Source: a bacterium
GTDB taxonomy: Bacteria > Elusimicrobiota > Elusimicrobia > Elusimicrobiales > UBA9959
DNA length: 64,000 bases
Assembly: GCA_021789695.1 (NCBI GenBank)
Contig: JAJYJH010000008.1
Location: forward strand, 8,595-72,594
Direction of reading: 5' to 3'
Made by a program: the position numbers and the translations under genes. Shown here piece after piece: positions 24,436 to 57,670 of the stretch. The stretch's first letter is position 1. Every line of letters starts with the position of its first letter. Below the pieces are notes generated by a model, which saw nothing but the letters and a program-made list of their open reading frames with translations, did not search any database and was not told the origin of the DNA.

Positions 24436-25142
24436 CCGCCGAAGGCCTCCCGCACCGAGGCCAGCCTGGCGGCGCTCACCGAGCGGGAACGGTCGGAGCC
24501 GAAACAGACGGCGCCGCGCAGGCCGACTATGTCGGGCCCCAGCCCCCGCAGTACCGGCAGCATCCGCACTCCTACGGAGCCGGCGAGGGCGGTCTTAAGG
24601 CCGGCGGCGCGGGCCAGGCGCAAAAAGCGCGCCAGCTCCGGGCGCGTCATGTTGTCGAAAAGGGAACGCCCGTCCTTAAGGGCTGTGTCCAGCATGACGG
24701 CGGCGGCTCCGGCCCTCTTAGCCGCACGCACCAGGGGCCAGGGCGCCAGCCCGCCGAAACGGCGCCAGTCCGCATAGCCGGCTATGACCGGCAGCGCGCG
24801 TGGCGCCGCCGAGCGTACGCCTTTGACCACGGCGCTGGCCAGCTCGAAGGCCCTGGCCTCGGTCCTGACGCCGTAGAGCCCGGCCTTGACGTAATCCGCG
24901 CCTATCGAGGCCGCGGCGTAGGCCGCAAGCGCTGCTGTGCCCGGCTTGAAATCCAGGTCGCCTATCGCGGCGCTGAACTCTACGGGATAACGCCGAAGCC
25001 GGCGGACTATCCCGGCCAGCACCCAGGGGAAATTGGCCCCCAGCGAGCCTTCATTGACGTTCTTGAGGTCCAGGATATCGGCCCCGCCGCGGGCCACGAG
25101 CAGGGCCTCGCGCAGGTCCACAGGGCTGACTAGAAGTTTCAT
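24432..25142 (-). CDS. (5-formylfuran-3-yl)methyl phosphate synthase homologue (MfnB / DUF556 family)
   Basis: MKLLVSP start, GSLGANFPWV, AAIGDLDFKPGTA, GADYVKAGLYG, AGYAD, MLDTALKDGRSLFD, ALAGS and IVGLRGAVC. An alternative ATG lies at 25160. Confidence 0.7.
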   Translation of the reverse strand: MKLLVSPVDLREALLVARGGADILDLKNVNEGSLGANFPWVLAGIVRRLRRYPVEFSAAIGDLDFKPGTAALAAYAAASIGADYVKAGLYGVRTEARAFELASAVVKGVRSAAPRALPVIAGYADWRRFGGLAPWPLVRAAKRAGAAAVMLDTALKDGRSLFDNMTRPELARFLRLARAAGLKTALAGSVGVRMLPVLRGLGPDIVGLRGAVCFGSDRSRSVSAARLASVREAFGG

Positions 25143-25143
25143 C

Positions 25144-26199: not shown

Positions 26200-26237
26200 T
26201 CCGCCGCCCTGCCGCCGGAGATGGACGGGGCAGTTTT

Positions 26238-27269
26238 TCAAGACGCCCTCCCGGCGAGGCGGCGGACGAAAGCCTTTAGCGCCTCCCCGTAGCCGCCGTT
26301 CATGGCCGGAAGCAAGGCCCGCTCCAGCACCGCCATGGCGGAGCCTGTCCTCGCGGCCGCGGTGGAACGGCAATACGCCGCGGCACCGCTGGCGATCATC
26401 GCCTCCCGGGCACGGGTCACGTCCGCCTCCCGTGGCACGGTCCCGGGAGGCCGCGAATAAAGGCGGAGCAGGAAGGAACGGCCGACGGAGGAGGAGCGCC
26501 GCAGGGCGTGCCAGAGCAGCAGCGTGCGCTTGCCTTCCCGTATGTCGTTGCCCGGAGCTTTTCCGAAGCCGGTCCCGCCGTCGTTCTCCAGGTCCAGAAC
26601 GTCGTCCATGAGCTGAAAAGCGGCGCCGAGGTGCCGTCCAAAAACATTAATCGCACCGAAGAGGTCGTAACGTCCGGCGAGGACGGCGGCCAGCCTGCAC
26701 GGGCCCGTGGTGGTATAGGAGGACGTCTTCATGTCCGCCAGGCGGAAGTAAGCGCGCGGCGAAAATTCTCGCGGCGGCCTACCCCGCCAGACCAGCTCCA
26801 GGTGCTGTCCCTGGAGCGCGCGCCGGACAGCGGTATAAAACTCGCCGAATACCGGACCGAACTCCCGCGGCCCGAGCAGACAGTTGCCGTAGAGCATCTC
26901 CGGTATGTAGGTGGCTGTGAGGTCCAGCGCGTTGATAGCGGCCTCCTCGCCGCACAGGCGGTGGAGCGCCGGGCCGCCGCGTCTCGTCTCGGCGTGATCC
27001 ATAAGGTCGTCGCGGCCGAGACCCCAGTTCTCAAGAAGTTCGTAGGCCGCCGCGAGGCGGGAGGCCTTCCTGTAGCTCCCCCCGAGCCCTCCGGCGAACA
27101 GGCACAGCAGGACGGAGCGCAGCGCCTTGCCGCGGCGCCGCGGATAGGCCGTGATGCATCCGCGCAGGCCGGGGTCCATGCCCGCCGTCTTTTTCTCAAG
27201 CCAGCCGTCCATGACCGCGAAGACGTCCCGGCGCACTTTCACGGCATAGGCGTCAAGACTTATCGCCAT
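26238..27269 (-). CDS. Polyprenyl diphosphate synthase (canonical motifs)
   Basis: RDDLMD...RRGGPALH and FQLMDDVLDLE...GK...NDIREGKRT. GGGAGG Shine-Dalgarno. Confidence 0.8.
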   Translation of the reverse strand: MAISLDAYAVKVRRDVFAVMDGWLEKKTAGMDPGLRGCITAYPRRRGKALRSVLLCLFAGGLGGSYRKASRLAAAYELLENWGLGRDDLMDHAETRRGGPALHRLCGEEAAINALDLTATYIPEMLYGNCLLGPREFGPVFGEFYTAVRRALQGQHLELVWRGRPPREFSPRAYFRLADMKTSSYTTTGPCRLAAVLAGRYDLFGAINVFGRHLGAAFQLMDDVLDLENDGGTGFGKAPGNDIREGKRTLLLWHALRRSSSVGRSFLLRLYSRPPGTVPREADVTRAREAMIASGAAAYCRSTAAARTGSAMAVLERALLPAMNGGYGEALKAFVRRLAGRAS

Positions 27270-27873
27270 AAACCTCCCTCAGGGTCGAACCTAGAAAGCC
27301 GCGCGGAAGAAGAAGGGCGGACTCGGCCCGGGAGCGGCGCGCAGACCAACCGGCGCCGACGGCGAGCGCGGCCTCTCGGCAAGCGCGCGCGCCGCCTTCC
27401 CCCAGGCCCAGTTCCAGCGCGCGGAAAAAGAAGGCGGCCCGCAGGGCCCACCCCTCAGGAGAAACTTCTTTCGCCACGCCTGGGCGCAGCAGAGATCCGG
27501 AAATGGCAGCTCCGGCCTCCACGAAGAAACCCTCAAGAGCCTGGCGGCGTTCCGCCGGGAAGCAGCGCGCGGCCAGGCGCTCCGCCAACGAAACGGCCGA
27601 AAGCAGCAGCAGGATATCGCCCCCCCGCAGGGCGGCGGTTGCGCGCCTGCCGCAGGCCTCCCTGGACCTCAGCCATGGCTGCTGCGCAGCCGAGAGGGCG
27701 TCTGCGGAAGCCAGCAGCCGGGGCGGGACGCGCGTCCCAGGCCAGAGCAGCCTCACCGCCCTGCCAGCAGGGGTGCGCGCAAGGAGGAGCCGTGCCTCGG
27801 AAGAAGGCCATGGCCTTCCCGGCGGTCCGGCCAGGAGGGCCGCGGCAAGCTGGGCCACTGGGCCGCGCTTCAT
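27253..27873 (-). CDS. Hypothetical Ala/Leu-rich helical protein
   Basis: Operon-embedded, with overlaps at both ends. No motif recognised. Confidence 0.4.
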   Translation of the reverse strand: MKRGPVAQLAAALLAGPPGRPWPSSEARLLLARTPAGRAVRLLWPGTRVPPRLLASADALSAAQQPWLRSREACGRRATAALRGGDILLLLSAVSLAERLAARCFPAERRQALEGFFVEAGAAISGSLLRPGVAKEVSPEGWALRAAFFFRALELGLGEGGARACREAALAVGAGWSARRSRAESALLLPRGFLGSTLREVYGDKS

Positions 27874-28973
27874 TTCGTCCTCCGTGCCGAAAGATAAAGC
27901 GGCAGGCGCAAAAAAAGGGCGCGAGAAGCCCGCGGCAGGCTAAGCTCCGCGACGAGGCGCAGGGCGCGGGCATTGAGGGACGCGATAGAGGCTTCCGTTT
28001 CCTCCACCGCGCCGCAGTCGCGGGCCGCCCGGATGGCGCGCTGCAAGGCGCTGCGGGAAGGTTTCCCCGAAAGGACGGAATCCGCCGCGCGGGGGTCGTC
28101 CCGTTTCAGGCGAGCCAGAGCCGCCGAGGTCAGGAAGGTGGCTTTGCCGGCCAGAAAGTCGTCGCCGGGGAGTTTCCCCCAGGAAGGGTCTTCCGGAAAG
28201 AGGTTGAGCATATCGCCGCGCAGGTGATAGGCCGCGCCAAGGGTCTCTCCGAGAGCGCAGAACTCGGCCTGCCTGGCGCGCGGAAGGCCGGCGCAGACCG
28301 CCGCCGCGCCGAGCGGGCCGGCGAAGGAAAGGATCGAGATCCTGTCGCGCACGTTATCGAGATAGGCGGCCATGGTTACGGGCCCTTGAGCTTCGGCCAG
28401 GAGCGGTTCCGACAGGTGGCCGCGACAAGCCCTGAAATAATAGGAATTCATGAGCTCGTGAAGGTGTAGCCTCTGCCTGGACCCGAGGGGCAGCGCCGGG
28501 TGGTCCGGCACTCCCAGGCAGAGATGAAAGACGGCCATGGCGGCCGCGGCCGCCCGGGGGCCGTATACCAGCTGCGCCGCGCGGGCCCCGCGCCGGCGCG
28601 GAGAGGAGTCCAGTGCATCGTCGAGCATCACGGTGGCGGACTCCATCACCTCGAGCATCCACAGCAGGGGACGGAACTCTTCCGGGGCGCGCCCAGCCGC
28701 CTGCAGAGCCAGCATGGCCAGGTAAGGGCGAAGCAGCTTGCCCGGCCTGTCCAGATAATAGCGCAGCACCGACCAGTCCGTCCCCGCCAGCCCGGCGCGC
28801 CCTGGCCTGGCCAGAAGTTCCGGCACCGCGGAAAAGGAATACTCTGCCAAAGCGCCCCGGATGACCGGCAGACAGGCCCGGTAATGCCCGGCCAGTTCCG
28901 GCCCCATCTCGCCGGCCGCCTCCGGAGATGGTTCCCCCCAGCCCGGGCCGAAAGGCTTTGGACGCCCGGCCAT
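27870..28973 (-). CDS. Polyprenyl synthase-family paralogue with a degenerate second Asp-rich motif
   Basis: RPGKLLRP, MLDDALD...RRRGARAA, and RGDMLN in place of DDxxD. Clear paralogue of 25144-26199. Start taken at 28973 (a 1-nt overlap with the upstream stop). Confidence 0.7.
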   Translation of the reverse strand: MAGRPKPFGPGWGEPSPEAAGEMGPELAGHYRACLPVIRGALAEYSFSAVPELLARPGRAGLAGTDWSVLRYYLDRPGKLLRPYLAMLALQAAGRAPEEFRPLLWMLEVMESATVMLDDALDSSPRRRGARAAQLVYGPRAAAAAMAVFHLCLGVPDHPALPLGSRQRLHLHELMNSYYFRACRGHLSEPLLAEAQGPVTMAAYLDNVRDRISILSFAGPLGAAAVCAGLPRARQAEFCALGETLGAAYHLRGDMLNLFPEDPSWGKLPGDDFLAGKATFLTSAALARLKRDDPRAADSVLSGKPSRSALQRAIRAARDCGAVEETEASIASLNARALRLVAELSLPRASRALFLRLPLYLSARRTK

Positions 28974-29797
28974 CAGGATACCAGCCAGCCCGCCAGCACG
29001 CAAAGCAGCATCAGGTTGGCGGAAAGAAGATAAAGCTCGTAGAACCAGCGCGGCGGGCGGAAGGAGGCGGCCGCCGCGGCGGCCATCGTCCAGAGGGTCC
29101 AGGCGGAATCGGCCTTCTCCCCGAGAAGAAGATGCCGGAGCAGGACCGGCGCCAGCAGCAAGGCCAGCGCCGCGGCTGTAGCCCTCAGACCGAGAAGTAC
29201 GGGCACGCTGCGCACGCCGGCTTCGGCGTCCCCGCTGTAGTCGCGCATATCCAGGATCACACTAAGGGCCAGGATGAACGGGATAAGCATCCATGTCGCA
29301 CGGATCAGGGCCGCAGCGGCCGTCCACGAGAAGGCGTGGTGCAGCAGGAACGGGGCAAGAACCCCGACGCCCCAGAACGCGGCCAGGTTCACCAGGGTCT
29401 TGAGCGCCGGCACCCTCTTTATAAGAGTTACGCCGTTGAAAGGGACCGCGTACAGCGGCACGAAAACCACGGAGAGGACCAAAAGCGGGCGGAAGGGGGT
29501 AAGCAGCAGGATATAGAGCGAGTCGGCCAGCAGCAGCGCGCCGAAGAAGGCCGGCGGGGGCGGGGAAATCCTCAGTTCCCCGGCCGGCACGTTGACGGAA
29601 TCCTCTTTCTGCGAGAACAGGCGGTCCAGCAGATAAGCCAGCTGGATCATGACGGCCAGCGCGCCGCCGGCCGCGATGGCGGCGGCCTTCAGCCCCCCCA
29701 TGGCCGAGGCCATATTGAGAAAAAGCAGGAAAGCCGCCAGCGGGAGCTGGACCCGGAACGAGGAAACGAACCCGTAGACAGCGGAGAATGCCCTCAT
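28973..29797 (-). CDS. UbiA-superfamily-like membrane prenyltransferase (divergent first motif)
   Basis: Eight or nine TM helices. The second motif DMRDYSGDAEAGVRSVP fits DxxDxxxD-x3-G-x2-[ST]-x-P. The first motif YLLDRLFSQKEDSVN is degenerate. Confidence 0.55.
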   Translation of the reverse strand: MRAFSAVYGFVSSFRVQLPLAAFLLFLNMASAMGGLKAAAIAAGGALAVMIQLAYLLDRLFSQKEDSVNVPAGELRISPPPPAFFGALLLADSLYILLLTPFRPLLVLSVVFVPLYAVPFNGVTLIKRVPALKTLVNLAAFWGVGVLAPFLLHHAFSWTAAAALIRATWMLIPFILALSVILDMRDYSGDAEAGVRSVPVLLGLRATAAALALLLAPVLLRHLLLGEKADSAWTLWTMAAAAAASFRPPRWFYELYLLSANLMLLCVLAGWLVS

Positions 29798-30807
29798 ATA
29801 AAAAAACGCGGCTTCTGGCCCCAGACTATGGTCTCGGGCTGCACCACCATGGTGACTTGCACTCCCGAAAAAACGGCCGCCAAGTCCGGGGCGCCGACGC
29901 CGCGGCGCAGAGCGAAGAAAGGCGCCGCCAGCAAGGCCTCCAAAGGGTTCAGGCGCCTGAGCCTTCCCAGATATCGTCCACGCCATCTGCGGCTCAGCTC
30001 CTGCGCTGCGGAAAAGAACTCCGGAGAATGGAAACGCCGGCCGCGCCCGGAGGACACTGCGAAGAACCATTTATTCTTCCCGGTGGAAGAGGACGGGAGC
30101 GTGGCGCAGAGGCGGAAGCCGGGGACCGCGCCGGAAAGGGCCGACAGCACGGCCCCGGCCCCGCACTCCGACTCCAGCAGTGCGGCCCGCTCCGGGCCGG
30201 AAACGCTCTCGGGGGTCTTAAAGGCCACGAAAAGGACCAGGTCGGCAAGATCGGGCCTGGACAGGGCCCAGGAGTGGACCGCCGGCGCTCCGTCGAGGTT
30301 GCGCCTGGAGACGGTCATGTTGAAATAGCAGGAGCCTACTCCGGCGTCGCGCACCATCCCCCCGAGGCGCGCGCGCAGGGAATTGAGCGCGGCCTCGTCG
30401 GCTCCTTTCCAGCCCTCCCGGTCCTGCATGGAGTCCACGTGAAGACAGACCCCGGCTAGGCCCGCGGATTTAAGCGCCTTCAGGCGCGCCGGGGACAGCA
30501 GGGAACCGTTGGTATTTACGAAGGGGCGCAGTCCGGCTCTGGCCGCGTGCCTGACCGCCTCCTCGATATGCGGGTAGCACAACGGATCGCCTCCTGCGAA
30601 AGCCAGGACGTCCGTGCGCACCCCCGAGGCCACCGAGTCTATCTCGGCCAGGACTTCTGGCAAAGACCTGTGCTTACCCGGAAAATTGGAGGAAAAGCAG
30701 CCAGGGCAGTGCATATTGCACTCCTTCGTAGGCTCCAGCCAGGTAATTATAGTGTCGGCAAGAGTCCAAGGCAGGCGGTATGGCCGCGGCGTTGCGGATA
30801 AGGTCAT
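29794..30807 (-). CDS. Radical SAM protein
   Basis: ECNMHCPGCF (CX3CX2C), FAGGDPLCYP, and GGAGGA/GGAGAA Shine-Dalgarno. First gene of the operon. Confidence 0.75.
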   Translation of the reverse strand: MTLSATPRPYRLPWTLADTIITWLEPTKECNMHCPGCFSSNFPGKHRSLPEVLAEIDSVASGVRTDVLAFAGGDPLCYPHIEEAVRHAARAGLRPFVNTNGSLLSPARLKALKSAGLAGVCLHVDSMQDREGWKGADEAALNSLRARLGGMVRDAGVGSCYFNMTVSRRNLDGAPAVHSWALSRPDLADLVLFVAFKTPESVSGPERAALLESECGAGAVLSALSGAVPGFRLCATLPSSSTGKNKWFFAVSSGRGRRFHSPEFFSAAQELSRRWRGRYLGRLRRLNPLEALLAAPFFALRRGVGAPDLAAVFSGVQVTMVVQPETIVWGQKPRFFI

Positions 30808-30921
30808 TTATTCTCCGTCCTCCGCAAGAAAATGCGCCTCGTCGCCGGCCGGATGCCGGTCATTCTCCTGGCACGGAGAGATCTCGCGGGCTGCATCGAT
30901 AGCGGCTTTTCCTTAAGTCCC

Positions 30922-30927
30922 ATTATA
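30922..30927 (-). promoter_or_regulatory. Candidate -10 (TATAAT) for the radical SAM-to-methyltransferase operon
   Basis: Minus-strand TATAAT about 115 nt upstream of ATG 30807 in the 165-bp gap. No clear -35. Confidence 0.3.
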
Positions 30928-30972
30928 TTAAATGCCTCGCCGCCGGGGCGCTTGGGCCGCGTCGGAATGCGG

Positions 30973-31743
30973 TCAGGCGCGGCCTGGCCCGAGCAGCGTA
31001 CCCGGCCGGGACCGTCCGGCGAGAAAGGAAACGAGGCCCTCCGGGCGCCTGCCGTCGAGCACGAGGGCCCGCCCCCCTCCTCGCACTATCTCCAGCAGTT
31101 CGGCAGCCTTGCCGCGCATCCCCCCGCTTACGTCTCCCGGCTCCCGGGGACAGGCGCGGGAGAACGCCTCCAGGCCCGGCTCGTCCAGCTCCGGCAGCAC
31201 CGCGCCGGCGGCGTCCAGCAACCCCGGCGCGTCGGTGAAGAATACCGCCAGGCGCGGCCGCAGCAGCCCGCAGAGCCCGACGGCCAACGCGTCGCTGGAG
31301 ACCACTACGCCGCCCCCAGTCCCGTCGGGAAATATACCGCTGGAGACCACCGGCACGAGTCCTGACGCCAGCGGGGCCTCGATAGCAGAAGCATCCGCGG
31401 GCACGGGGCGCCCCCCCCTCAATAAAAAATACTCCGGCCCCGGCACACTTCCGACCACCAGCCCGGCCGAGCGCAGTTCCCGGAGAAATGCCAGATGAAG
31501 GCGCAGAAGGGAAGTATTGATGGCGTCTACGGGCGCCCCGCCCGGAGGTACCCTGCCGGACAGGTAGCCGTAGCGAAGGGCCGGAGGCTTGCCGAAGGAA
31601 CCGGTGCCGTGGACCAGCGCGAAAGGCTCGCGCAGTTCTGCCAGAGAGGCCGCCAGGCGCGAGGCGGCCGCCCGGTCAAAGACCGGAGACTCCCCTTTGC
31701 GGGTTATCACGCTGCCACCGGCTTTTATCACCAGCATCGCCAT
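30973..31743 (-). CDS. Isopentenyl phosphate kinase family (amino-acid-kinase fold) protein
   Basis: VIKAGGSVITRK, LVHGTGSFGK, LVPVVSSG, FFTDAPGLL and DVSGGMRGK, aligned by eye to archaeal IPK motifs. Confidence 0.65.
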   Translation of the reverse strand: MAMLVIKAGGSVITRKGESPVFDRAAASRLAASLAELREPFALVHGTGSFGKPPALRYGYLSGRVPPGGAPVDAINTSLLRLHLAFLRELRSAGLVVGSVPGPEYFLLRGGRPVPADASAIEAPLASGLVPVVSSGIFPDGTGGGVVVSSDALAVGLCGLLRPRLAVFFTDAPGLLDAAGAVLPELDEPGLEAFSRACPREPGDVSGGMRGKAAELLEIVRGGGRALVLDGRRPEGLVSFLAGRSRPGTLLGPGRA

Positions 31744-31761: not shown

Positions 31762-32814
31762 ATGAGCTCCGGAGCCAAAGACGGGAAGGGCGGGCCTGAG
31801 CCGGGGAAGCCGTCACCCCGCGCGCTGCTTGAGCTGGCCGCGCTTAAGGCCAGACTCCTGAAACTGCCTGAAGGCGCCCCCGGCACGCTCTATATCGCGC
31901 TCACCTACCGCTGCGATCTCTCCTGCCGTCACTGCAAGTACCGTTCCTCGGCGCCGGGCCCGGATATGCCGTTCGGAGACCTGAGGCGGCTGCTGGAAAA
32001 CGCCGCCGCCTCCGGCATACCCCGCGTCGCCTTTTTCGGCGGAGAACCGCTACTCTACCCGCGCCTGGAACAGGCCGTGCGCCTGGCCTCGGGACTTGGG
32101 CTTTTTACGCAGCTGGACACCAACGGCCAGACGCTGGGCGCCCGGAGGGCCTTGGAACTTGCAGCCGCCGGGCTCTCCCTTGCCACTATCAGCCTGCACT
32201 CCGCCGATGAGGCCGGGCACGACGCCCTAAGCGGACTTGGCTCATTCCGCAAGGCCATCGCGGCGGTTTCGGCGGCCCTGCGCGCCGGGCTCTTCGTCCA
32301 CGTCTCCTCTTGTTTCTTCTCGGCCGGGCTTTCCTCCGGAGAACCGGGCCGGCTGGCGGCCTTCGCCCGCGGCCTGGGCGCCCACGGCGCAAGGGCGCTG
32401 CTCTATTCCCCGCCGGAGGGCGGTTCCGCGGACCTGCCGCGCCGCTTGTCAAAGGCCTTGGCCGCGGCCGACCTGGACGGCTTCTCGCGCGGCTGCGTCC
32501 GCTCCGGCCGGCGAGCCTGCGCCGCAGCCGCCGGGGACATACTTTTCACGGACGCAGGATTGAACGTGAAGAGCTGCCCCTACTCCGTCCGGTCGCTGGG
32601 AAAGGCCACGGCCGGGCTGCGCCGCTTCTTCGGCGGCGAGCGCGCTCCCGCCGGTCTCTTCCCCTGCCATTCCCCACGCCCATCCTGCCGCGCAGCTAGC
32701 GCAGGCCGTAATTTTGCTAAAATAATCAGATGCGAGAGGCTAGGAAGAACAAAGCCATATCCGAATCCGTCAGCTGGCGCAAGACCGGTGAAGAGGCCGT
32801 CCTCCTTGACCTAG
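31762..32814 (+). CDS. Radical SAM peptide-maturase-like enzyme with a partial SPASM/twitch region
   Basis: YRCDLSCRHCKY (CX3CX2C), FFGGEPLLYP, and C-terminal C-x12-G-x5-C (ACAAAAGDILFTDAGLNVKSC). The last ~30 codons run across an AT-rich spacer into the PqqD gene. Confidence 0.75.
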   Translation: MSSGAKDGKGGPEPGKPSPRALLELAALKARLLKLPEGAPGTLYIALTYRCDLSCRHCKYRSSAPGPDMPFGDLRRLLENAAASGIPRVAFFGGEPLLYPRLEQAVRLASGLGLFTQLDTNGQTLGARRALELAAAGLSLATISLHSADEAGHDALSGLGSFRKAIAAVSAALRAGLFVHVSSCFFSAGLSSGEPGRLAAFARGLGAHGARALLYSPPEGGSADLPRRLSKALAAADLDGFSRGCVRSGRRACAAAAGDILFTDAGLNVKSCPYSVRSLGKATAGLRRFFGGERAPAGLFPCHSPRPSCRAASAGRNFAKIIRCERLGRTKPYPNPSAGARPVKRPSSLT

Positions 32815-33014
32815 AAACCTCGGAGTATTACTCCCTTAACGACACCGGCACGTTCATATGGGAGCGTTTCGCCGCCGGCAAGCCGCTCTCCTCGATAACC
32901 GAAGAACTGGCCGCCGAATACGGCATATCCGCCGGCCAGGCCGAGCGCGACGCCGAGGCCTTTCTCAAGGACCTATCCGTCCTGAAGATCCTGAACGAGG
33001 GGGACGCTAAATGA
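32730..33014 (+). CDS. PqqD-family peptide chaperone (stand-alone RRE)
   Basis: EAVLLDLETSEYYSLNDTGTFIWE followed by a winged-helix-like tail. 94 aa. Confidence 0.8.
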   Translation: MREARKNKAISESVSWRKTGEEAVLLDLETSEYYSLNDTGTFIWERFAAGKPLSSITEELAAEYGISAGQAERDAEAFLKDLSVLKILNEGDAK

Positions 33015-33115
33015 AACGCCAGAAGACCAGCCAGCCCAAACAGAAAAAATACCGCAAACCGCAGATAAAATCCCACGGCAAGCTAAGTGAAGTCGCCTCG
33101 GCGTTCAAGCCCTAA
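33011..33115 (+). CDS. Candidate RiPP precursor peptide, 34 aa (MKRQKTSQPKQKKYRKPQIKSHGKLSEVASAFKP)
   Basis: Not in the ORF track (below 60 aa). The ATG overlaps the PqqD stop (ATGA), and GAGGGGG lies 7 nt upstream. The Y14-P17-I19-G23 spacing equals the RRE-recognised leader motif YxxPxL-x3-G. Locally A-rich. Confidence 0.55.
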   Translation: MKRQKTSQPKQKKYRKPQIKSHGKLSEVASAFKP

Positions 33116-34070
33116 GCGGAAGACCGCTTTTCTTTTCCCGGGCTCCGGGGCGCAATACCCCGGGATGGGGCGCGCGTTGCGGAACGCCTTCCCCCCGATA
33201 GAGCGGCAGCTCGCCTTCATCGACCGCGCCGCGCTGCGTCCCCTTTCCGCCGCGATGGACGGGCCGGCCAGTCTCCTTTTTCCGGAGAAGACGCACGCGG
33301 ACCCGACCGTGTTCATGGAAGTAGTAATGGAACTGTCGCTGGCCGTGGCCTTGTCCATGACGGAGGCCGGCGCCCATCCTGACGCGGCAGCAGGGCGCAG
33401 CATGGGCGAATACAGCGCCGCCGCCTTCACCGGTGTATTAACGATGAGCGACTGCTTTGAACTGGTCCGCTTCGTGACGCTGAAGGGGCAGGAGGACTGC
33501 CTGGCGCAGCCGAGCGTTCTCGCGACGGTTTACGGCCTGACCAGGCGCGAGCTCGCGGCGGCGGCGGCAAAAGTGGCCGCTGCCGGTGAACCCTGCGAAG
33601 TGACAGTCTTCTACGACAAGGCCCGCCTCGGAGTGGCCGGCCTGCGCGAAAGCGCCCTGCCGTTGCTAAAGAAGGCCCTCTTACCGCTGCGCCACCGACT
33701 GAGCCTTTCGCGGGAACCCGGGGCCTTCCACACAAGCCTTTTCGACAGGCTGGCCGCCGGGGCGGCCGCGAAATTCGGGGAAACGCCCTTCTCCGCGCCG
33801 GCCATGCCACTTTACATGAACGCCGACGCGCGCAGGGCCACCTCCGCGCGGACCGTCAGGGAGAAGTTGGCAGCGGCGCTGAACAGCCCCGTACTCTGGC
33901 AGGAGACCATAGAGCGCATGCTGGCCGACGGGGTGCGTAACTTCGTGGAGCTGGCGCCAGGCGCGATGCTGACCGAGTTCGTCTGCGAACTGCCGCCCGA
34001 CGCCGAGGTCCTGCGCACGGACACTCCCGGGAACTACGCCAGAACCCTGCAAAGGCTGGCCGGGAAATGA
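33087..34070 (+). CDS. FabD-like acyltransferase (malonyl-CoA:ACP transacylase family)
   Basis: FLFPGSGAQYPGMG and nucleophile elbow GRSMGEYSA. The only in-frame start is GTG 33087, inside the small ORF. Confidence 0.75.
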   Translation: MKSPRRSSPKRKTAFLFPGSGAQYPGMGRALRNAFPPIERQLAFIDRAALRPLSAAMDGPASLLFPEKTHADPTVFMEVVMELSLAVALSMTEAGAHPDAAAGRSMGEYSAAAFTGVLTMSDCFELVRFVTLKGQEDCLAQPSVLATVYGLTRRELAAAAAKVAAAGEPCEVTVFYDKARLGVAGLRESALPLLKKALLPLRHRLSLSREPGAFHTSLFDRLAAGAAAKFGETPFSAPAMPLYMNADARRATSARTVREKLAAALNSPVLWQETIERMLADGVRNFVELAPGAMLTEFVCELPPDAEVLRTDTPGNYARTLQRLAGK

Positions 34071-35086
34071 TCCCGACGGAAGAACTTCACTTCGACCTCG
34101 GCGGCTGCAGGGTACTATTCTCCTGCGGGGACCCGCTCCTCTCCTTCGCCGTAGCCGCAAGCCTGTCCGCTTTCTCGGCCCCGCCCGGACACCCGGACAT
34201 CAGCATATCCGCCGAACTCGGCACAGTCTCCTCCGCGGGCCTCTCCCCAGCCCTCTTCTCCACGCGGCGCTGGAAAGTACTCAAGGCCCCGGCCGGCAGA
34301 CGCCTGGTCTGGTACCCGGAAGGGGCCGTCTGCGAATACGATTTCAGGACGCGCACCGGACGGCTGCGCTCCGCCGACCGCGCGCTGTTGGAGGAACTCT
34401 CCTATCTGCTGATACTGTCGCGGGCCGGGGAGGAACTAGACCTGGCCGGACTGCACAGGCTGCACGCCGGCGCGCTGGGCCACTCCGGGCAGGCGCTGCT
34501 CTTCTGCGGCCCGCGCGGCTCGGGTAAGACCACGCTGTTGCTGGAGCTGCTCAAGGACTCCGCTTTTTCGCTGCTTTCCGACGACACGCCGCTGGTGAGC
34601 GCGGACGGGTCGGTGCTGCCTTTTCCGGCCCGCGTCGGCCTTGCGCTCGACAGCCCACATCTGCCCGGCTTCGGCGGTCTGCGCCGGCTGGAGCGCCGCC
34701 ATTATCCGCCCAAGCGCCTGCTTGACACCGTCAAGGCGGGCTTCAGGCTGGCGGGCCCGCTGCCGCCCGGGGCTCTTTTCCTGCTCAGGCGCTCGGAACG
34801 GGCGCGGATACGCCGCGCGGCCATTCCCGCCGCCGCGGCGGAACTGGCCGTCTCGCTGGCCGTCGGCTGGGGCGTGCCGCAGCTGGCCGAATACTTCCTG
34901 AGGGCGGAACCGGAAGATCTCCTGCGCAAGGGCGGCATACTGGCCTCCAGGCTTCGGGCCGCGGCCCGCCTGCTCCGGCGCTCCGGCCGCTATATCTTCG
35001 AACTTTCCCCCGACCACGCGAGAAACGCGCAGGAACTCAGGGCCTTCCTTGGCAGCGGCAGCGCGCAGGGCGCGCGCGGCCTCTGA
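34067..35086 (+). CDS. HprK-related kinase (HPr kinase C-terminal-domain-like P-loop protein)
   Basis: LFCGPRGSGKTTLLLEL followed by LLSDDTPLV. ATGA overlap with the acyltransferase. Confidence 0.6.
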   Translation: MIPTEELHFDLGGCRVLFSCGDPLLSFAVAASLSAFSAPPGHPDISISAELGTVSSAGLSPALFSTRRWKVLKAPAGRRLVWYPEGAVCEYDFRTRTGRLRSADRALLEELSYLLILSRAGEELDLAGLHRLHAGALGHSGQALLFCGPRGSGKTTLLLELLKDSAFSLLSDDTPLVSADGSVLPFPARVGLALDSPHLPGFGGLRRLERRHYPPKRLLDTVKAGFRLAGPLPPGALFLLRRSERARIRRAAIPAAAAELAVSLAVGWGVPQLAEYFLRAEPEDLLRKGGILASRLRAAARLLRRSGRYIFELSPDHARNAQELRAFLGSGSAQGARGL

Positions 35087-36053
35087 ACGTTTCCAACAGT
35101 TCCTCCAAAGCTCCGAATATCCAGCCCGCGCCGTAAGCAGCGTGCAGCGCCGGGTAAAGGCAGAACACAAGCGGCGCGTCAGACGCGCCTGCACCGGATA
35201 AAATCGCGGAAACCGCGCAGGCCGAAAGATAGAGAAGGCCGAGCGCGCAGGCCGTCCCCGGCGCCGCCGCGGCCAGCACCGGCCCGGCCGCGAGGGCCGC
35301 CGGCGGCAGCAGCGTGAAGGCGCAGAAACCGCTGCGGGCCTGGACCGTTATCTGGCCCCTCCCCCGCCCGGAGGAAAAGACCTGACGGACGAAAGCCCCT
35401 GCGGAGGTCCTGCGGCGGTGCACCAGATTGAGGTCCCCGCTCAGCAGCATACGCGCTCCGTCCGCGGCCATTCTGCCCAGCAGCAGGTTCTCCTCGGCGC
35501 TACTCAGATGTCCCTCAAAGGAAAGCCCGCGCGCGGCCAGGAATTCCCTGTCCAGCGTCAGATTGCAGAGCACGAACTTGCCGGGACCGGCCTCGTAGGA
35601 GCCGGAAACGGGGGCGAACCTGGGCGTGAACGGCCCGCTTGCCCAGCGCGAGCGCAGCAGCCGGTAGACCGCGCGCTCGAAACGGCCGGCCCCGGAGTAA
35701 AGTTCCTGCCCGCCGCCGAATACGGAAAAGCCGCCGCCCGCCTCTATCAGCGCCCTCAACCGCCAAAAGTACCCCGGCGGCAGAACGGTGTCGTCGTCCA
35801 GGAAACAGAGCCAGCGCCCGGAAGCCAGGCGGACCAGCTCGTTGCGGGCCTCCCCGCGGCAGCCCCGTGGCAGCTGTACGGCGCGGGTGCCCGGGAACTT
35901 TCCCAGCACTCCGGAGGAGGCTGGATCGGCCCCGTCGATCCCCACCAGCACTTCGCCGGGGACTCCGGCTGCCCGCAGGCTCTCCAGGCATCGGGCCAGC
36001 AGCTCCGGCCTGCCGCGTGTAAGTATGATAACGCTTATCTCAGCGCCCGGCAT
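35037..36053 (-). CDS. Family 2 glycosyltransferase with a C-terminal membrane region
   Basis: ISVIILTRGRPELL and CFLDDDTV, plus hydrophobic C-terminal helices. Confidence 0.7.
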   Translation of the reverse strand: MPGAEISVIILTRGRPELLARCLESLRAAGVPGEVLVGIDGADPASSGVLGKFPGTRAVQLPRGCRGEARNELVRLASGRWLCFLDDDTVLPPGYFWRLRALIEAGGGFSVFGGGQELYSGAGRFERAVYRLLRSRWASGPFTPRFAPVSGSYEAGPGKFVLCNLTLDREFLAARGLSFEGHLSSAEENLLLGRMAADGARMLLSGDLNLVHRRRTSAGAFVRQVFSSGRGRGQITVQARSGFCAFTLLPPAALAAGPVLAAAAPGTACALGLLYLSACAVSAILSGAGASDAPLVFCLYPALHAAYGAGWIFGALEELLETFRGRARPARCRCQGRP

Positions 36054-39000
36054 CGTCCAGCCTCCCGGCCGCCGCGGCGGTCTGGGCCGCCGTGAACAGA
36101 TAATTCTCCCGGTTATAACCGCCTTTCAGAAAGGCGTTCCAGTCCGGAGAAGCCGCCCCGAAAGCCGCGCGGAACCGCTCCGCCAGTTCGGCGGGGCGGG
36201 AGAACGGAACCGCCTCCCCGGTCTCCAGCAGCAGACGCAAGCCGGCGGCCCGCGTAAAAAAATAATGCGGCGGCATGGTCCCCCAGAAAGAGCGCCAGGA
36301 AACCGCGAAATGCCTGGCCGCCAGCACGGCGCCGCCCTTCAGCGCCTCCGCAGTGGGCGCCGGCAGGACGTCCACTCCTGAAGAATAGATCCCGCCGTCC
36401 TCCGGCCGCGCCCCGCGGCCGCCGTAAAGCAGGTCCAGCGCCAGCGACGGATTGTTGAGATACGGCAAGCCGCACAGGGCCGCGAAGGAGGCGCGGGTAA
36501 GCAGCAGCGGAGCCGCAGAAAAATAGTGGAACGAACCGCGCGCCTTCAGGAAAGCTTCTGCGGCGCGCAGGAAGAAGTCCCTGTCTGCGGCTGCCTCGTC
36601 CGGCAGCACGACGTAGACCCGGTAGAGCGGGTCCAGGACGACCCCGGCCTGGCCGCCGGCTCCGGCCGCCAGTTCCGCGCACGCGGCTTCGAAAGCGTGG
36701 GTATTGAAAAGGCCGGCGGCGGGGGGCGGCGCGGGGCGACCGCCGGAGAAAGGAGGGCAGGCGGCGTGCAACGAGGCGAAAGCGGCGAAGGCCGAGTCGG
36801 CCGGGGCCGGTGAAAAGGCCGGGCCTGCGCCGAAATGCGAGGCGGTGTAGGCGGACCGGCTCTCCCTCTCCGGGGAGCCCGGGTCCGTGTAGCGCCTGAC
36901 GTCTATCATGCTTTTGGCGCAGTTGCGGCGGCGGAAGGCCGGCGGCAGATCTGGAGACAAAAAATGGCCCAGCAGCAGAGTGTAGGCGTAGAAGGCCTCG
37001 GTCAGATCGGCCTGGGGAGAGTTCTCCGGAGGCTGCATCACGAGCCGCGCCCCGCCAAGCAGGCGGGAAGCCCTCTCGAACTCCGCTCCCTTCACCCCCC
37101 AGCAGCGCATAAAGGAGGAGAACTCCGCCGCCGGGGACTGCAGCGCCTCTCCGGTGAATGGGAACAGCGCGCGAAAAAAACGCAGCTTCCGGCGCAGCGA
37201 AACGAAAAGTTCCCAATCCGCCGCGGGAGGTCCCGGCGGGAACAGCAGCGCCAGGTCCATGTCGCTCAGCCCCGGAACCCAGCCGCCTGAAACCATGCCG
37301 CGGTACAGGTAAACCGAGCCGCCCCGCCCCGGGCGGAGCAGTAGCCCCGCGGCGCCGGCGGCGGCCAGGTAGAGCGCTCTATAGAAGCCGCTGAAAAACG
37401 GGAAGCGGGAGGTGGCGGCCGCGAAACGGAACAGCGCGGAGCGCAGCGCGGACCGGGACGGCCGCCGGAGTGGCGCCTCCCAGGGCAGCCCGTCGAAAGA
37501 CACGTCAGAGCAGCGCAGGTTTGCGCCGTCCCCTGCGGCCAAGCCCGGATAGGGGGAACCGGAAAGGACGCAGCCGCGCAGGAATGCGCTCCCCCCGGAG
37601 ACCCGGAGCCCGCCGTGGGAGCCGCCCAGCACTATCAGGCCGCGGGCGCGCAGCCTCGCGCCGCGCAGTTCCGCCCCGTATTCCTCGCCACGCAGCGTCA
37701 GGTTCTCAGCCTCTATGTCCGCGGGCGCAGAAGCGGAGAGCCCCCCTTTGCCGGAGGCGCTCACGGAAAGCAGTCTGACTCGCCGCGCCGAAATATCCAG
37801 ACCGGCCCCGGCGCCGGCCGCCAGAGAGGAGTTGGATAGTTCCACCGAAGTTCCCGCCGCGGCGCGCAGCGCGGACGAGGCAGAGACGAACTCCGAGGAA
37901 ACCGCGCGGAGGGAGGAGGCCCCTTCCGCCGAGACCGCAGGCCCGCCCACCCCCTCCGCTTTCAGGGCATCGAGCGAAGCCGAGGAGCGCCCCGAAATGG
38001 CCAGCGCCGGAAATCCGCCGCAAGAGCGCAGGACGCAGGAATAGGCCCGCAGTCCAGCCAGACCGCCGGCGGCAACGACCGGGCCGCCGGAACTTTCCGC
38101 GTTCACCCTGGTCACCGATGCCGAGGAGCGTTCAGAAAGGACCAGCGCCGGCGGAGCGCCGGAGGAACGACAGGAGGAAAAGAACAGCGAAGCGCGGCCT
38201 GCCAGTTCCGCGGCCGGTCCGGAGTTGCCGAAAAACTCCGAGTTCTCCGCGCGCAAGCCGGCTCTGCCGGCGGCGTAAAGCCCGGCGCCGCAGTTCTTCA
38301 CGGAACAGCCGTCCAGAGAGGCGGACACGGAACCTTCGGCATAGAGGGCCGGCCCGGCCAGGTCGGAGAACGCGCACTTCCCCGCCCGCAGCAGGGAGCG
38401 CCCGGCCGCCATTATCCCAGCGGCGCAGCCGTGGACGGAAAGGCCAAAGAACCCCGCCGAGGCGTCCCCCCAGAGCTCGGCCGCGGGGCCGGAAGAGGCA
38501 GAAATCAAGCCGCTCCGGAAAAGGACGACGGCCGCTCCAGAGACCAGCAGAGCCGGCCCTCTGCCGGCCGAAAAAGAGCAGTCCTCCAGCGAGGCCGAGG
38601 AGCGCCCATAGAGCTCGGCGCCGCGTTCGACGGATTCTACCGCGCAGGAGCGCGCATCCACCCGCCCCCGGTCCCTGGCCGACAGAGCGCAGCCGGAAAC
38701 CGCGCGCAGCGTGCAGCGGGACAGTTCCAGTACGGCGTCCCCAAGCGCGTGAAGACCGGCGAAGCCAGGCCCGGAAAAGGTTATCCCCGCGGCCGGGCCG
38801 CCAGCGGCCTTGAGAGCGCCATAGACCAGCAGTTTGGCCCCGGCACTCTCGAGGGAAAGCGTCCCGCCGCCGGCCGAGGCGCGCAGGACCGGAAAGAACC
38901 ATGGTTCGCGGCGTTCAAAGAACACCTCGGTGCCAGGCAGGACCGTCACTGTGACTCCGCGCTCTATGGTAAGATAGTCCGCCACCGTCACCCGGCCGCT

Positions 39001-39591
39001 CCAGGTCTCGTCGCAGGAGATACGTCCGCTCTTCAGCAGCCCGGCCGGAGCGGGGCCGGAGGAAGGCAGGCGGGCGGGAAGGGCGGCCAGCGCGGAGAGG
39101 GCAGGGTAGACGCGGGACTCCCAGGCCAGCCAGAGGGGGTCCAGCAGCGAGCCCTCGCGGCCGGGCAGCAGGCGGCAGAGCAGGCGGAACGCCGACGAAG
39201 CGACGGCCACCGAGAGGTAGAGCAGCTTCGCGGCCGCGGCGGAATAGACGGCCAGGAAAAAACCGCGCGCCCCTCCGCGCGGCAGCCGCCGGCGCGTCCC
39301 CGCCCGGTCGAAGGCCGTCACGAGACCGCCGGGTTTAAAGGCGGAAGGCGGCCAGTCCGGCAGCAGATTGGCGTCGCCCTTGCAGAGAAAAAGGCGCCGC
39401 CCCAGGAACGAAGCGTTCAGCAGCACCCGGTGTATGACGTAGCCGCAGGGAAGGGCGCCCCGCCATTTAACCAATAGCGCAACGTCTCCGGAAACGACCT
39501 CGGCCGGCGCGCAGCGGCGCACGTGCGCCGCGTCTCCCGGCTCCAGGAGAAAACGCATCGAATGCCCAAGAACCGGGTAGGTCTTTTCCAA
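36040..39591 (-). CDS. 1183-aa multidomain protein: S24/S26 (SipW/Sec11-like) peptidase, TM segment, parallel beta-helix repeats, TM segment, nucleotidyltransferase-fold domain
   Basis: GHSMRFLLEPGD, VIHRV and CKGDANLLPD at the N-terminus. About 500 aa of Gly/Ala/Ser/Cys periodic repeats follow. Then YRGMVSGGWVPGLSDMDLALLF (NTase G-S/DxD pattern). Confidence 0.7.
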   Translation of the reverse strand: MEKTYPVLGHSMRFLLEPGDAAHVRRCAPAEVVSGDVALLVKWRGALPCGYVIHRVLLNASFLGRRLFLCKGDANLLPDWPPSAFKPGGLVTAFDRAGTRRRLPRGGARGFFLAVYSAAAAKLLYLSVAVASSAFRLLCRLLPGREGSLLDPLWLAWESRVYPALSALAALPARLPSSGPAPAGLLKSGRISCDETWSGRVTVADYLTIERGVTVTVLPGTEVFFERREPWFFPVLRASAGGGTLSLESAGAKLLVYGALKAAGGPAAGITFSGPGFAGLHALGDAVLELSRCTLRAVSGCALSARDRGRVDARSCAVESVERGAELYGRSSASLEDCSFSAGRGPALLVSGAAVVLFRSGLISASSGPAAELWGDASAGFFGLSVHGCAAGIMAAGRSLLRAGKCAFSDLAGPALYAEGSVSASLDGCSVKNCGAGLYAAGRAGLRAENSEFFGNSGPAAELAGRASLFFSSCRSSGAPPALVLSERSSASVTRVNAESSGGPVVAAGGLAGLRAYSCVLRSCGGFPALAISGRSSASLDALKAEGVGGPAVSAEGASSLRAVSSEFVSASSALRAAAGTSVELSNSSLAAGAGAGLDISARRVRLLSVSASGKGGLSASAPADIEAENLTLRGEEYGAELRGARLRARGLIVLGGSHGGLRVSGGSAFLRGCVLSGSPYPGLAAGDGANLRCSDVSFDGLPWEAPLRRPSRSALRSALFRFAAATSRFPFFSGFYRALYLAAAGAAGLLLRPGRGGSVYLYRGMVSGGWVPGLSDMDLALLFPPGPPAADWELFVSLRRKLRFFRALFPFTGEALQSPAAEFSSFMRCWGVKGAEFERASRLLGGARLVMQPPENSPQADLTEAFYAYTLLLGHFLSPDLPPAFRRRNCAKSMIDVRRYTDPGSPERESRSAYTASHFGAGPAFSPAPADSAFAAFASLHAACPPFSGGRPAPPPAAGLFNTHAFEAACAELAAGAGGQAGVVLDPLYRVYVVLPDEAAADRDFFLRAAEAFLKARGSFHYFSAAPLLLTRASFAALCGLPYLNNPSLALDLLYGGRGARPEDGGIYSSGVDVLPAPTAEALKGGAVLAARHFAVSWRSFWGTMPPHYFFTRAAGLRLLLETGEAVPFSRPAELAERFRAAFGAASPDWNAFLKGGYNRENYLFTAAQTAAAAGRLDDAGR

Positions 39592-39611: not shown

Positions 39612-40412
39612 TCAGGCGGCCTTCAGGCTGCTCGGGTCGCTCTCAAGATACGGGTCCAGCTCGTCCAGGAATTCCAGCGCCTTGCGGCACCATTTATCCA
39701 CGAAGACCTCGCGATTCTTGACCGCGCAGGAATGGAAATGCTCGTGTCCGTCGAAGCTGGCGTGGTGGCGGTGCCAGACGAAGACTTCCTTGGCGACCTT
39801 AAGTTGCCAGCCGGCCTGCCGCAGGCGCAGAGAATAGTCGAAGTCCTCGAAACAGCCGGTGCCGAAGCGCTCGTCGAACAGGCCCACGCTCTCGTAGGCC
39901 CGGCGGCGCAGCATGAGGCAGAAACCGACAAGGCGGTGCGCCTCGAAGCTCTCGGCCCGGAACCTGAGACGCATGGCCTGGGAGAAGGCGGACAGGGACT
40001 TCCTGTCTTTTTCCACTGTTGGGGCCAGAACTACGCGCTGCACGCCTACGGTACGGTTGGTTAGCGGGCCGCAGGCCCCGACCGCGGGATAGGCGTCGAG
40101 GCAGGCGGCCAGGCCCTGCAGGCCGCCTTCGAAGAAAGCCACGTCGCTGTTCACCACCGCGATGTACTCACCTGTAGCGGCCCTTAGGCCCCGGTTGACG
40201 GCCTTGGCGAAGCCCAGATTAGAGGCGTTGCGCAGCCGCAACGCGCCGCGCTTTGCAGCTACGTAGCGCCGCGTCTCCGGGCGCGAGCCGTTGTCGACCA
40301 GTATGAGCTCGTAAAGCCCGCCAGCCGTGCGTTCCAGGCTATCCAGGCAGGACCTGAGGTCCGGGAGTGCGTTGAAAACAGGAATAACCACGCTTATTTT
40401 CTTGTCTGGCAT
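39612..40412 (-). CDS. Family 2 glycosyltransferase
   Basis: ISVVIPVFNALPDL, LILVDNGS and VVNSDV. Confidence 0.8.
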   Translation of the reverse strand: MPDKKISVVIPVFNALPDLRSCLDSLERTAGGLYELILVDNGSRPETRRYVAAKRGALRLRNASNLGFAKAVNRGLRAATGEYIAVVNSDVAFFEGGLQGLAACLDAYPAVGACGPLTNRTVGVQRVVLAPTVEKDRKSLSAFSQAMRLRFRAESFEAHRLVGFCLMLRRRAYESVGLFDERFGTGCFEDFDYSLRLRQAGWQLKVAKEVFVWHRHHASFDGHEHFHSCAVKNREVFVDKWCRKALEFLDELDPYLESDPSSLKAA

Positions 40413-43455: not shown

Positions 43456-43511
43456 CTTAATAGTCTAGCAGAGAAATACGCCGCCGGCAAGCGGACGGAC
43501 GGGAATGTGGC

Positions 43512-44195: not shown

Positions 44196-44197
44196 GA

Positions 44198-44698: not shown

Positions 44699-44705
44699 AA
44701 GGTCC

Positions 44706-45170: not shown

Positions 45171-45186
45171 TCTCTCCCCCCCCGCG

Positions 45187-46410: not shown

Positions 46411-46456
46411 ATATATATAGAAGTCTAACAGAAAGCGTGGATAGGCGCAATCCCCC

Positions 46457-57658: not shown

Positions 57659-57670
57659 CGCCAGGGCCGG

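Follow-up and report, generated by a model that had tools for sequence, protein, structure and literature searches.

Does the short open reading frame (ORF) that follows the PqqD gene in this stretch of Elusimicrobia DNA encode a real peptide, and what would be made from it? The stretch analysed here (the window) spans 64,000 nucleotides, and the ORF occupies 34 codons at positions 33011-33115. The sequence-only reading, made from the letters of the window, took it for the precursor of a ribosomally made peptide that is modified after translation (RiPP), with a leader for the RiPP recognition element (RRE) of the PqqD protein and a core of about four residues. As judged from its pattern of substitutions, the ORF is a genuine coding gene under strong purifying selection, and its product is very probably a genuine RRE-bound precursor peptide. 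The elements that carry this assignment are the following.

32730-33014, plus strand: a discrete PqqD-family RRE of 94 residues (Pfam PqqD, 3e-19).

33011-33115, plus strand: the putative precursor peptide gene (34 residues), with a variable K/R/Q-rich N-terminus (residues 1-13), an RRE-binding motif and an invariant tail (H22-P34).

33050-33079, plus strand: the predicted leader recognition motif YxxPx[IV]xxHG (codons 14-23), identified by its invariant residues, an alignment to the TbiA leader and a motif match to the linear polyphosphorylated peptides (LPPs).

33074-33112, plus strand: the nearly invariant tail HGK(I/L)SEVASAFKP (codons 22-34), with the presumed cleavage site and a short core.

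The start codon of the peptide gene (ATG, 33011-33013) shares bases with the PqqD stop codon (TGA, 33012-33014) in an ATGA overlap, and a Shine-Dalgarno-like GAGGGGG (32997-33003) is located 7 nt 5' of the ATG; the coordinates of both features, as read earlier, were confirmed. The ORF is translated into MKRQKTSQPKQKKYRKPQIKSHGKLSEVASAFKP, the N-terminus of which is very basic. The A content of the ORF is 39%, compared with 18.8% in the window, which has a G+C content of 64%. The first 66 nt of the ORF contain 47% A and rank 10th among 63,935 sliding windows, a ranking that bears out the conspicuous A-richness noticed in the sequence-only reading. The RRE-binding motif of the peptide (Y14-x-x-P17-x-I19-x-x-H22-G23) has the Y14, P17, I19 and G23 spacing that had been described. 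The pattern Y..P.[ILV]...G occurs only twice across the six frames of the window (128,000 residues), and the probability of a chance match within a 34-codon ORF is thus ~5e-4. Terminator-like hairpins past the peptide stop (33114-33129) are not in excess (three found against 1.9 expected in shuffles). The ORF had been called unannotated; it indeed has no name in public sources, but its exact product has been gene-called on two contigs.

A search with the PqqD protein yielded 39 homologues with 41-97% identity, and every homologue with a named source comes from a metagenome-assembled genome (MAG) of Elusimicrobia. In genome and metagenome collections, 134 loci were retrieved (L numbers below). 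A conserved short ORF had been expected in homologous loci, and a small ORF with the motif and a conserved C-terminus was found downstream of PqqD in every clade locus with readable sequence at this position. The ATGA overlap between the PqqD and peptide genes is common to most clade loci, and a GGAG/GAGG-type site is observed at -9 to -13 in 22 of 26 orthologous loci. The precursors of the orthologous loci contain 34-49 residues and are encoded by one copy per locus. In total, the peptide gene is represented by 25 distinct DNA versions and one variant, with PqqD identities as low as 41%.

The N-terminal 13 residues of the peptide are variable and rich in K, R, Q, P and T, with a 15-residue insertion in one subclade. 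The last 21 residues follow the pattern Y-x-K-P-x-[IV]-K-[SAP]-H-G-K-[IL]-S-[ED]-V-A-S-A-F-K-P (tail consensus Y.KP.[IV]K.HGKISEVASAFKP). Thirteen tail positions are amino-acid-invariant across the 25 DNA versions, most of them with synonymous codon change. At invariant tail residues, Gly and Ala each use four codons, Pro uses three, and Lys, Tyr, His and Phe use two each. The Y, P, H and G residues of the leader motif are also invariant in the 25 versions. In the deepest comparison (L014), the identity is 41% for PqqD, 41% for the acyltransferase encoded by the next gene, 33% for a downstream kinase and 27% for a large fusion protein, and 19 of the 21 tail residues of the peptide are identical. 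No other element of the locus comes close to the peptide tail in conservation. The invariance of the tail with synonymous change, together with the presence of the ORF after PqqD in every readable related locus, indicates that the ORF is not a chance reading frame. An exhaustive HMMER search with the peptide against 1.84 billion (1.84e9) representative proteins returned three 50%-identity clusters, all of which belong to the peptide's own family. No family model in Pfam or NCBIfam matches the peptide, and an exact look-up of the PqqD sequence of the window gave no match.

The 3' end of the peptide gene contains the GTG start (33087) of the next gene, which encodes a FabD-like protein, and the nucleotides ATAAGTGAAGTC are near-fixed around this start inside the tail. 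An ORF in such a position need not be a RiPP substrate and could instead encode a small basic protein or, as an upstream ORF, do no more than couple PqqD translation to the FabD-like gene. The ATGA overlap upstream, the GTG start inside the 3' end with its near-fixed nucleotides and the very basic N-terminus are compatible with such a role. However, amino-acid conservation with synonymous change is also observed outside the overlap, and the peptide bears the exact binding motif of the neighbouring RRE class. Moreover, in L013 and L078, a 200-nt spacer separates the peptide gene from the next gene and the tail is unchanged, so the gene overlap is not the reason for the tail conservation. A coupling function without a RiPP is thus very improbable.

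The relatives of PqqD suggest how the peptide could be recognized. PqqD-like RRE domains bind a Tyr/Pro/Leu leader motif in lasso-peptide precursors. The best NCBIfam matches of the PqqD protein are two lasso B1 models, both below cut-off, and its best PDB relatives are TbiB1 (5.4e-9), TfuB1, LppB (9X8Z; 6e-5) and PbaB1. The RRE-leader pairs of the lasso B1 proteins (TbiB1-TbiA, 5V1V; TfuB1, 6JX3) are the closest structural relatives of PqqD. In an HMMER alignment, the PqqD residues N37, D74 and F78 correspond to LppB N33, D70 and F74 (numbering of PMC13381572). LppB N33 fixes a kink at the leader Pro residue, D70 forms a hydrogen bond with the leader Tyr residue, and F74 stacks on the Pro residue (PMC13381572). 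Among 40 PqqD family members, D74 and F78 are invariant, and N37 is nearly invariant. The peptide itself has a single PDB match among 177,635 sequences, the TbiA leader (KKYRKPQIKSHGKLSE versus KEYRSPELKEYGRVED), with an E-value of 1.1 that is not significant alone; the TbiA leader is the cognate ligand of TbiB1, the best PDB match of PqqD. The likeness is apparent from the peptide leader KKYRKPQIKSHG and TbiA KEYRSPELKEYG. With a Tyr-type RRE translationally coupled to a peptide that carries the YxxPx[IV] leader of that RRE class, an RRE-leader pairing is well supported by the sequences. The earlier proposal of a lasso-type YxxPx[IL] leader beside a PqqD RRE gains from the kinship to TbiB1 and LppB, the conserved contact residues and the TbiA leader alignment.

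A lasso-type leader is not accompanied by a lasso-type pathway. No Asn-synthetase-like cyclase or transglutaminase-like B2 protease was found in the scanned sizeable ORFs of the window or in the 20-kb orthologous loci, and the absence of both enzymes reported in the sequence-only reading holds for every sizeable window ORF scanned. Its view that the core is too short for a lasso likewise stood, with at most eight residues past the leader motif. A lasso peptide was rejected, given that there is neither a cyclase nor a B2 protease, that the core is too short for a 7-9-residue ring plus a tail and that no Asp or Glu acceptor is present in a ring-forming position. A decayed lasso-peptide cluster, in which the precursor has lost most of its core, would account for the lasso-type leader and the B1-type RRE, and more distant PqqD loci do contain ordinary lasso-like precursors. 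Such decay is nevertheless incompatible with the strong purifying selection across the clade, and the missing cyclase and B2 protease extend to the orthologous loci; the probability of this explanation is close to negligible. The ordinary lasso-like precursors are located at L023:8810-8959 (cyanobacterium), L084:959-1114 (soil metagenome) and L015:814-951 (Roseithermus) and carry the leader [YF]xxPx[ILV]xxxG, as exemplified by the L023 precursor with the same leader (KKTYTKPEVTVYG).

The gene upstream of PqqD is central to a different explanation.

31762-32814, plus strand: a radical S-adenosylmethionine (SAM) enzyme with a CxxxCxxC motif and four or five conserved C-terminal Cys residues, without a fused RRE (Pfam, 1.2e-19).

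The radical SAM orthologues contain ~300-320 residues, and in most loci their genes end 10-20 nt before PqqD. This spacing and the lack of an own RRE argue that the enzyme uses the PqqD protein described here as its RRE. The sequence-only reading had named a radical SAM/SPASM enzyme. The radical SAM part is borne out by Pfam (1.2e-19), but no Pfam match to a SPASM domain was obtained in the enzyme. Given this lack and only four or five extra conserved Cys residues, the enzyme looks twitch-like, or equipped with a partial SPASM domain, rather than a full SPASM protein. The enzyme scores 58.5 bits against PqqE (cut-off, 381) and 44.2 bits against MftC (cut-off, 265), and in a PDB search with its family profile, the matches cover only the generic core of BlsE, PqqE, GDGT-MAS, SkfB and MoaA. 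Compared with L001, the radical SAM gene of the window lacks 1 nt past the last conserved Cys residue (32690-32814, plus strand). This deletion, which could reflect an error in sequencing or assembly or else a stop loss without harm, results in a 38-residue radical SAM tail and an 85-nt overlap with PqqD.

A PqqD-guided radical SAM enzyme could cross-link or rearrange the last ~4 residues (AFKP), which would then be excised as a small molecule or cofactor; the kinase, nucleotidyltransferase (NTase) and glycosyltransferase genes of the locus would be secondary or unrelated. The locus resembles the pyrroloquinoline quinone (PQQ; PqqA/D/E) and mycofactocin (MftA/B/C) systems in its small precursor, discrete PqqD protein, radical SAM enzyme without an own RRE and invariant C-terminal end. 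The radical SAM gene is operonic with PqqD in most loci, tail invariance over deep divergence is typical of cofactor precursors, and one copy of the precursor gene is found per locus. Family 2 glycosyltransferases (GT2s) of the locus also score best to the mycofactocin glycosyltransferase model, far below its cut-off. However, by its scores the enzyme is no orthologue of PqqE or MftC; its profile matches only the generic core, and no SPASM match was found. Neither system includes a set of kinase, peptidase and NTase. PqqA contains an E-x3-Y motif, and MftA ends in GVY. Neither motif is present in the peptide (tail EVASAFKP), and no homologues of PqqB/C/F or MftD/E were found in the window scans. 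PQQ or mycofactocin membership was rejected on these grounds (radical SAM scores far below the cut-offs, no SPASM match, no precursor motif and no downstream genes), and the locus lacked every membership feature tested.

The distribution of the radical SAM gene also bears on this explanation. A subclade comprising L003, L063 and L065 has a 93-residue PqqD protein and a tail that still reads EVASAFKP, without a radical SAM gene upstream of PqqD. In L003, a gene encoding a fusion of an ABC ATPase and a histone deacetylase (HDAC)-like domain (ABC::HDAC) abuts PqqD directly. The low-GC variant locus L077:374-1464 consists of a glycosyltransferase, PqqD, MKKTKKNAPVKDKKYQKPKVEAHGKISVLVSATFTSTQ and a kinase and contains neither a radical SAM gene nor a FabD-like gene; it retains the trio of PqqD, peptide and kinase. 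The retention of EVASAFKP without an adjacent radical SAM gene indicates that the role of the enzyme may be accessory. The PQQ/mycofactocin-like architecture of the sequence-only reading had been built solely on the radical SAM neighbour, which scores far below the PqqE and MftC cut-offs and is absent next to PqqD in one subclade, and it was not supported in the form proposed. Excision of a radical SAM-modified AFKP segment is possible but rather unlikely, although a small excised product as such is possible.

PqqD homologues, radical SAM enzymes and HprK-related P-loop proteins also co-occur in the SynChlorMet cassette (ScmC/D/E/F) and the HPr-rel-A system. Membership in these systems (TIGR04352/04353) was rejected because all scores are below their cut-offs (ScmD, 27/100; ScmF, 51/400; HprK_rel_A, 28/200; PqqD_rel_X, 20.6/35). 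These NCBIfam and Pfam families are bioinformatic, without a described precursor or product, and differ in their other partner genes. Literature searches for Elusimicrobia with PqqD, for SynChlorMet, and for PqqD with HPr kinase and radical SAM returned none. No paper or family model was found for this peptide or architecture.

The genes downstream of the peptide, which the sequence-only reading had overlooked, point to a third type of pathway. The radical SAM, PqqD, peptide, FabD-like and P-loop protein genes are arranged in this order on the plus strand and are followed on the minus strand by a GT2 gene, a gene for a protein of 1183-1443 residues and a second GT2 gene. The synteny of this block holds across PqqD identities from 91% to 41%.

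33087-34070, plus strand: a FabD-like Ser-His acyltransferase with a GTG start inside the peptide gene and without the malonyl-binding Arg residue.

34067-35086, plus strand: a predicted P-loop kinase of the phosphoenolpyruvate carboxykinase (PEPCK)/HprK fold (ScmC- or HprK-related; NCBIfam, PF27840, AlphaFold2 (AF2) and Foldseek).

35037-36053, minus strand: a GT2 glycosyltransferase, syntenic in all loci.

36040-39591, minus strand: a 1183-residue fusion of a signal peptidase I (SpI)-like domain, a β-helix and an NTase-like domain (TIGR02228, Pfam and invariant motifs).

39612-40412, minus strand: a second, syntenic GT2 glycosyltransferase.

The kinase orthologues match HprK_rel_A (6/6), HprK_rel_B (5/6) and HprK (hpr-ser; 5/6), all below cut-off, and many kinase homologues have faint precomputed matches to PF27840 (ScmC). 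The AF2 model of the kinase has a pLDDT of 93, and its top Foldseek matches are PEP carboxykinases (5e-11). The PEPCK-like fold is, in established structural classification, also that of the HprK catalytic domain.

The N-terminal region of the fusion protein resembles signal peptidase I of the archaeal/ER type, with TIGR02228 matches in all six orthologues examined (6/6; best 2.2e-7, below cut-off). This SpI-like domain contains the invariant motifs GxS11M, H54RV and GD73AN, which provide a candidate Ser/His/Asp triad (S11/H54/D73). The midsection consists of hydrophobic segments followed by a right-handed β-helix (Pfam, 3e-20). The C-terminal domain has an invariant RGM..W.PGLSD.DL / FPFxGE signature, and its sole PDB profile match is a minimal nucleotidyltransferase (1YLQ), with a weak E-value of 0.13. 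Pfam searches with the isolated SpI-like and NTase-like segments gave no match, and neither did a PDB profile search with the SpI-like domain. In L139, the two halves of the fusion are separate genes. In public gene calls, the large protein begins at an ATG inside the gene (MRFLLEPGD; window 39559-39591, minus strand; L135, L137, L138 and L139). This start drops the conserved YPVLGHSM segment with the candidate catalytic Ser residue, and a TTG or CTG start ~10 codons upstream is required.

A sequence identical to the last five residues of the precursor, SAFKP, is found at fusion residues 83-87 (window 39331-39345, minus strand). Its counterpart in the fusion orthologues is PPSAFQP, PPSDYQP or PPSRFQP, just past the GDAN motif. 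The SAFKP sequence inside the SpI-like domain could be due to chance (about 1e-3) or could be a pseudo-substrate.

A comparable set of functions has been described for the LPPs, which are reported to be confined to Bacillota (Popov et al., Nat Commun 2026; PMC13381572). The LPP core genes encode the SipW-like signal peptidase I LppS (Ser/His/Asp), the discrete RRE LppB, the HprK-like kinase LppK, the NTP transferase LppN and an MsbA-like exporter, and LPP loci are rich in glycosyltransferase genes (PMC13381572). LPP precursors contain 35-200 residues, with the motif YxxPxVLxHQxIxFETxxS and long variable C-terminal cores; LppS cleaves after T-1 in a leader presented to it by LppB, and LppK polyphosphorylates S3 (PMC13381572). 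The Elusimicrobia block likewise has a discrete Tyr-type RRE, predicted to use the same Asn, Asp and Phe contact residues, along with an HprK-like kinase, an archaeal-type Ser/His/Asp signal-peptidase-like domain, a putative NTase-like domain and glycosyltransferase surroundings, and has no cyclase. Four of the five LPP core functions have candidate counterparts in the block. The LPP motif is in register with the peptide at Y14, P17, I19 (V/I), H22 and I25. Kinase and NTase accessory enzymes are also a feature of phosphorylated lasso peptides of the paeninodin type. The gene context left aside in the sequence-only reading (kinase, signal-peptidase-like/NTase-like fusion, GT2s and FabD-like enzyme) therefore needs to be included, and it matches the LPP/phosphorylated-lasso tool kit (PMC13381572).

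We accordingly favour, with moderate confidence, a precursor for an RRE-dependent RiPP pathway that draws on the LPP/phosphorylated-lasso tool kit and has an LPP-like mechanism. Several observations weigh against this assignment. Six LPP motif positions (L-10, Q-7, F-3, E-2, T-1 and S3) are unmatched in the peptide, and the agreement at H and I beyond YxxPx[VI] could be due to chance (about 0.1). In contrast to the long, variable cores of LPPs, the core here is tiny (5-8 residues) and invariant. The LPP exporter is MsbA-like, and the nearby transporter here consists of an ABC-2 permease and the ABC ATPase::HDAC fusion. LPP clusters contain neither a radical SAM enzyme nor a FabD-like enzyme, and the Elusimicrobia block has both. 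In turn, L077 and the L003/L063/L065 subclade have no radical SAM gene beside PqqD, and the gene is thus not linked to the peptide in every locus. The SpI, HprK and NTase matches are all below curated cut-offs, and the AF2 model of the NTase-like domain is unusable (pLDDT 37), with a protein search that gave one hit. All of the chemistry proposed below is inferred by analogy with the LPP, paeninodin and lasso systems.

Further differences concern the organization of the genes and the processing motif. The peptidase and NTase domains are fused around a β-helix in one 1183-residue protein, the F-E-T/x-x-S cleavage and phosphorylation motif is not conserved in the Elusimicrobia peptide, and the phylum is Elusimicrobia rather than Bacillota. 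By these comparisons, the locus does not qualify as an LPP locus in three respects: its core does not vary, its transporter is of another type, and the leader motif is matched in part.

In the favoured LPP-like mechanism, the PqqD protein would clamp Y14, P17 and I19 and present the tail to the partner enzymes. The kinase would phosphorylate an invariant Ser residue (S30 or S26), and the Ser/His/Asp peptidase domain would cut off the leader at a site within the S26-A31 segment. The 5-8 residues that are left ((EVA)SAFKP) could be decorated by the radical SAM enzyme, NTase, GT2s and FabD-like acyltransferase, and the product would be handed to the envelope or exported.

The position of the cut depends on the register. 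The LPP register places the leader end at A29 and gives the core SAFKP, and the lasso register gives AFKP. In L077, the peptide keeps the leader through HGKIS and continues with VLVSATFTSTQ, in which S30 is also kept; this divergence after HGKIS suggests a boundary after S26 and the core EVASAFKP. Cleavage between VASA and F would correspond to a classical AxA signal-peptidase site. Given these several registers (AFKP, SAFKP and EVASAFKP), the core has 4-8 residues. The AFKP core after S30 that had been proposed in the sequence-only reading is retained as regards a very short C-terminal segment past the leader motif, but several other registers exist besides the one proposed. A tail that does not vary, one gene copy in each locus and a distribution that looks vertical together suggest a single fixed, conserved product and not a diversifying antibiotic or toxin.

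The FabD-like protein suggests yet another use of the tail. Its Ser-His dyad (S105 and H215) is invariant, and V, F, Y or T occupies the position of FabD Arg117 in all orthologues. Arg117 of FabD binds the malonyl carboxylate. The GTG at 33087 is the sole possible start of the FabD-like gene; public calls at a downstream ATG drop the FLFPGSGAQ oxyanion-hole motif (window 33087-33130, plus strand; L135-L139). In the acyl carrier protein (ACP) systems of malonate decarboxylase and citrate lyase, a Ser residue is combined with a holo-synthase of nucleotidyltransferase fold and MdcH. By analogy, the peptide could be a miniature acyl or prosthetic-group carrier and not a precursor that is cleaved. 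In such a carrier, the kinase and NTase would attach a phosphodiester-linked group to the invariant Ser residue, and an acyl group would be loaded by the FabD-like enzyme. The FabD-like enzyme scores equally well to MdcH (4e-29) and FabD (1e-29), invariant Ser residues and an NTase-like domain are available, and no ACP or ketosynthase (KS) was found in the window scans. Furthermore, the only variant locus without a FabD-like gene (L077) has a different tail. The idea is nonetheless pure analogy, with no genes for a thiol-bearing cofactor (MdcB/CitG-like) seen; the putative leader peptidase domain argues for cleavage, and a 34-residue unstructured peptide is unlike known carriers. A carrier role is thus quite improbable.

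Two further gene sets are located near the block.

20711-23037, plus strand: an ABC-2 permease and an ABC ATPase::histone-deacetylase-like fusion, which recur near the peptide block (candidate exporter/deacylase).

The ABC ATPase::HDAC fusion (window 21460-23037, plus strand) is conserved in many loci close to the peptide block. In view of the neighbouring acyltransferase and the invariant Lys33 residue of the peptide, the fusion could act as an export-coupled deacylase. A second gene set always adjoins the peptide block (window 23084-31743, minus strand; L135-L138). It encodes a 4-(hydroxymethyl)-2-furancarboxaldehyde phosphate (4-HFC-P) synthase of the MfnB family (3.5e-71), three polyprenyl-synthase paralogues, UbiA, radical SAM enzymes, an isopentenyl-phosphate-kinase (IPK)-like AA_kinase and a CMAS-like methyltransferase. 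Two of the three polyprenyl-synthase paralogues have a degenerate second Asp-rich motif, and in other loci the radical SAM enzymes of this set include a B12-binding one. This set places a furan synthase among prenyl enzymes in Elusimicrobia. Downstream of the cluster, pseudopilin genes, PilC, a T2SS/T4P (type II secretion/type IV pilus) ATPase, a secretin and two Wzy_C (O-antigen-ligase-like) TPR proteins are encoded (window 43120-50123 and 55055-60121, minus strand). By gene content, these downstream surroundings are those of envelope glycoconjugates and pili.

The peptide block and the adjoining isoprenoid/furan block, with the ABC::HDAC transporter, might constitute one pathway to a fixed, clade-wide peptide-derived conjugate, a speculative and unlikely extension of the LPP-like assignment. 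In such a pathway, a phosphorylated (EVA)SAFKP stub would be linked via the NTase, a glycosyltransferase or the acyltransferase to a lipid or cofactor-like moiety. If true, the product would belong to a new class, that of envelope molecules or cofactors anchored to a ribosomal peptide, and would not be an antibiotic-type RiPP.

The analysis adds a real, unnamed gene to uncultured Elusimicrobia genomes and corrects the starts of neighbouring genes. With the LPP-like assignment, the RRE/kinase/signal-peptidase logic of the LPP type, which was described in 2026 and thought to be confined to Bacillota, would extend to an uncultured phylum. It would do so in a new architecture that combines a radical SAM enzyme, a FabD-like acyltransferase and a peptidase-β-helix-NTase fusion. 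The short core would make this a compact system for learning about LPP-type end products. The near-invariance of the core suggests that a single conserved product serves a housekeeping or envelope role, an unusual situation among RiPPs.

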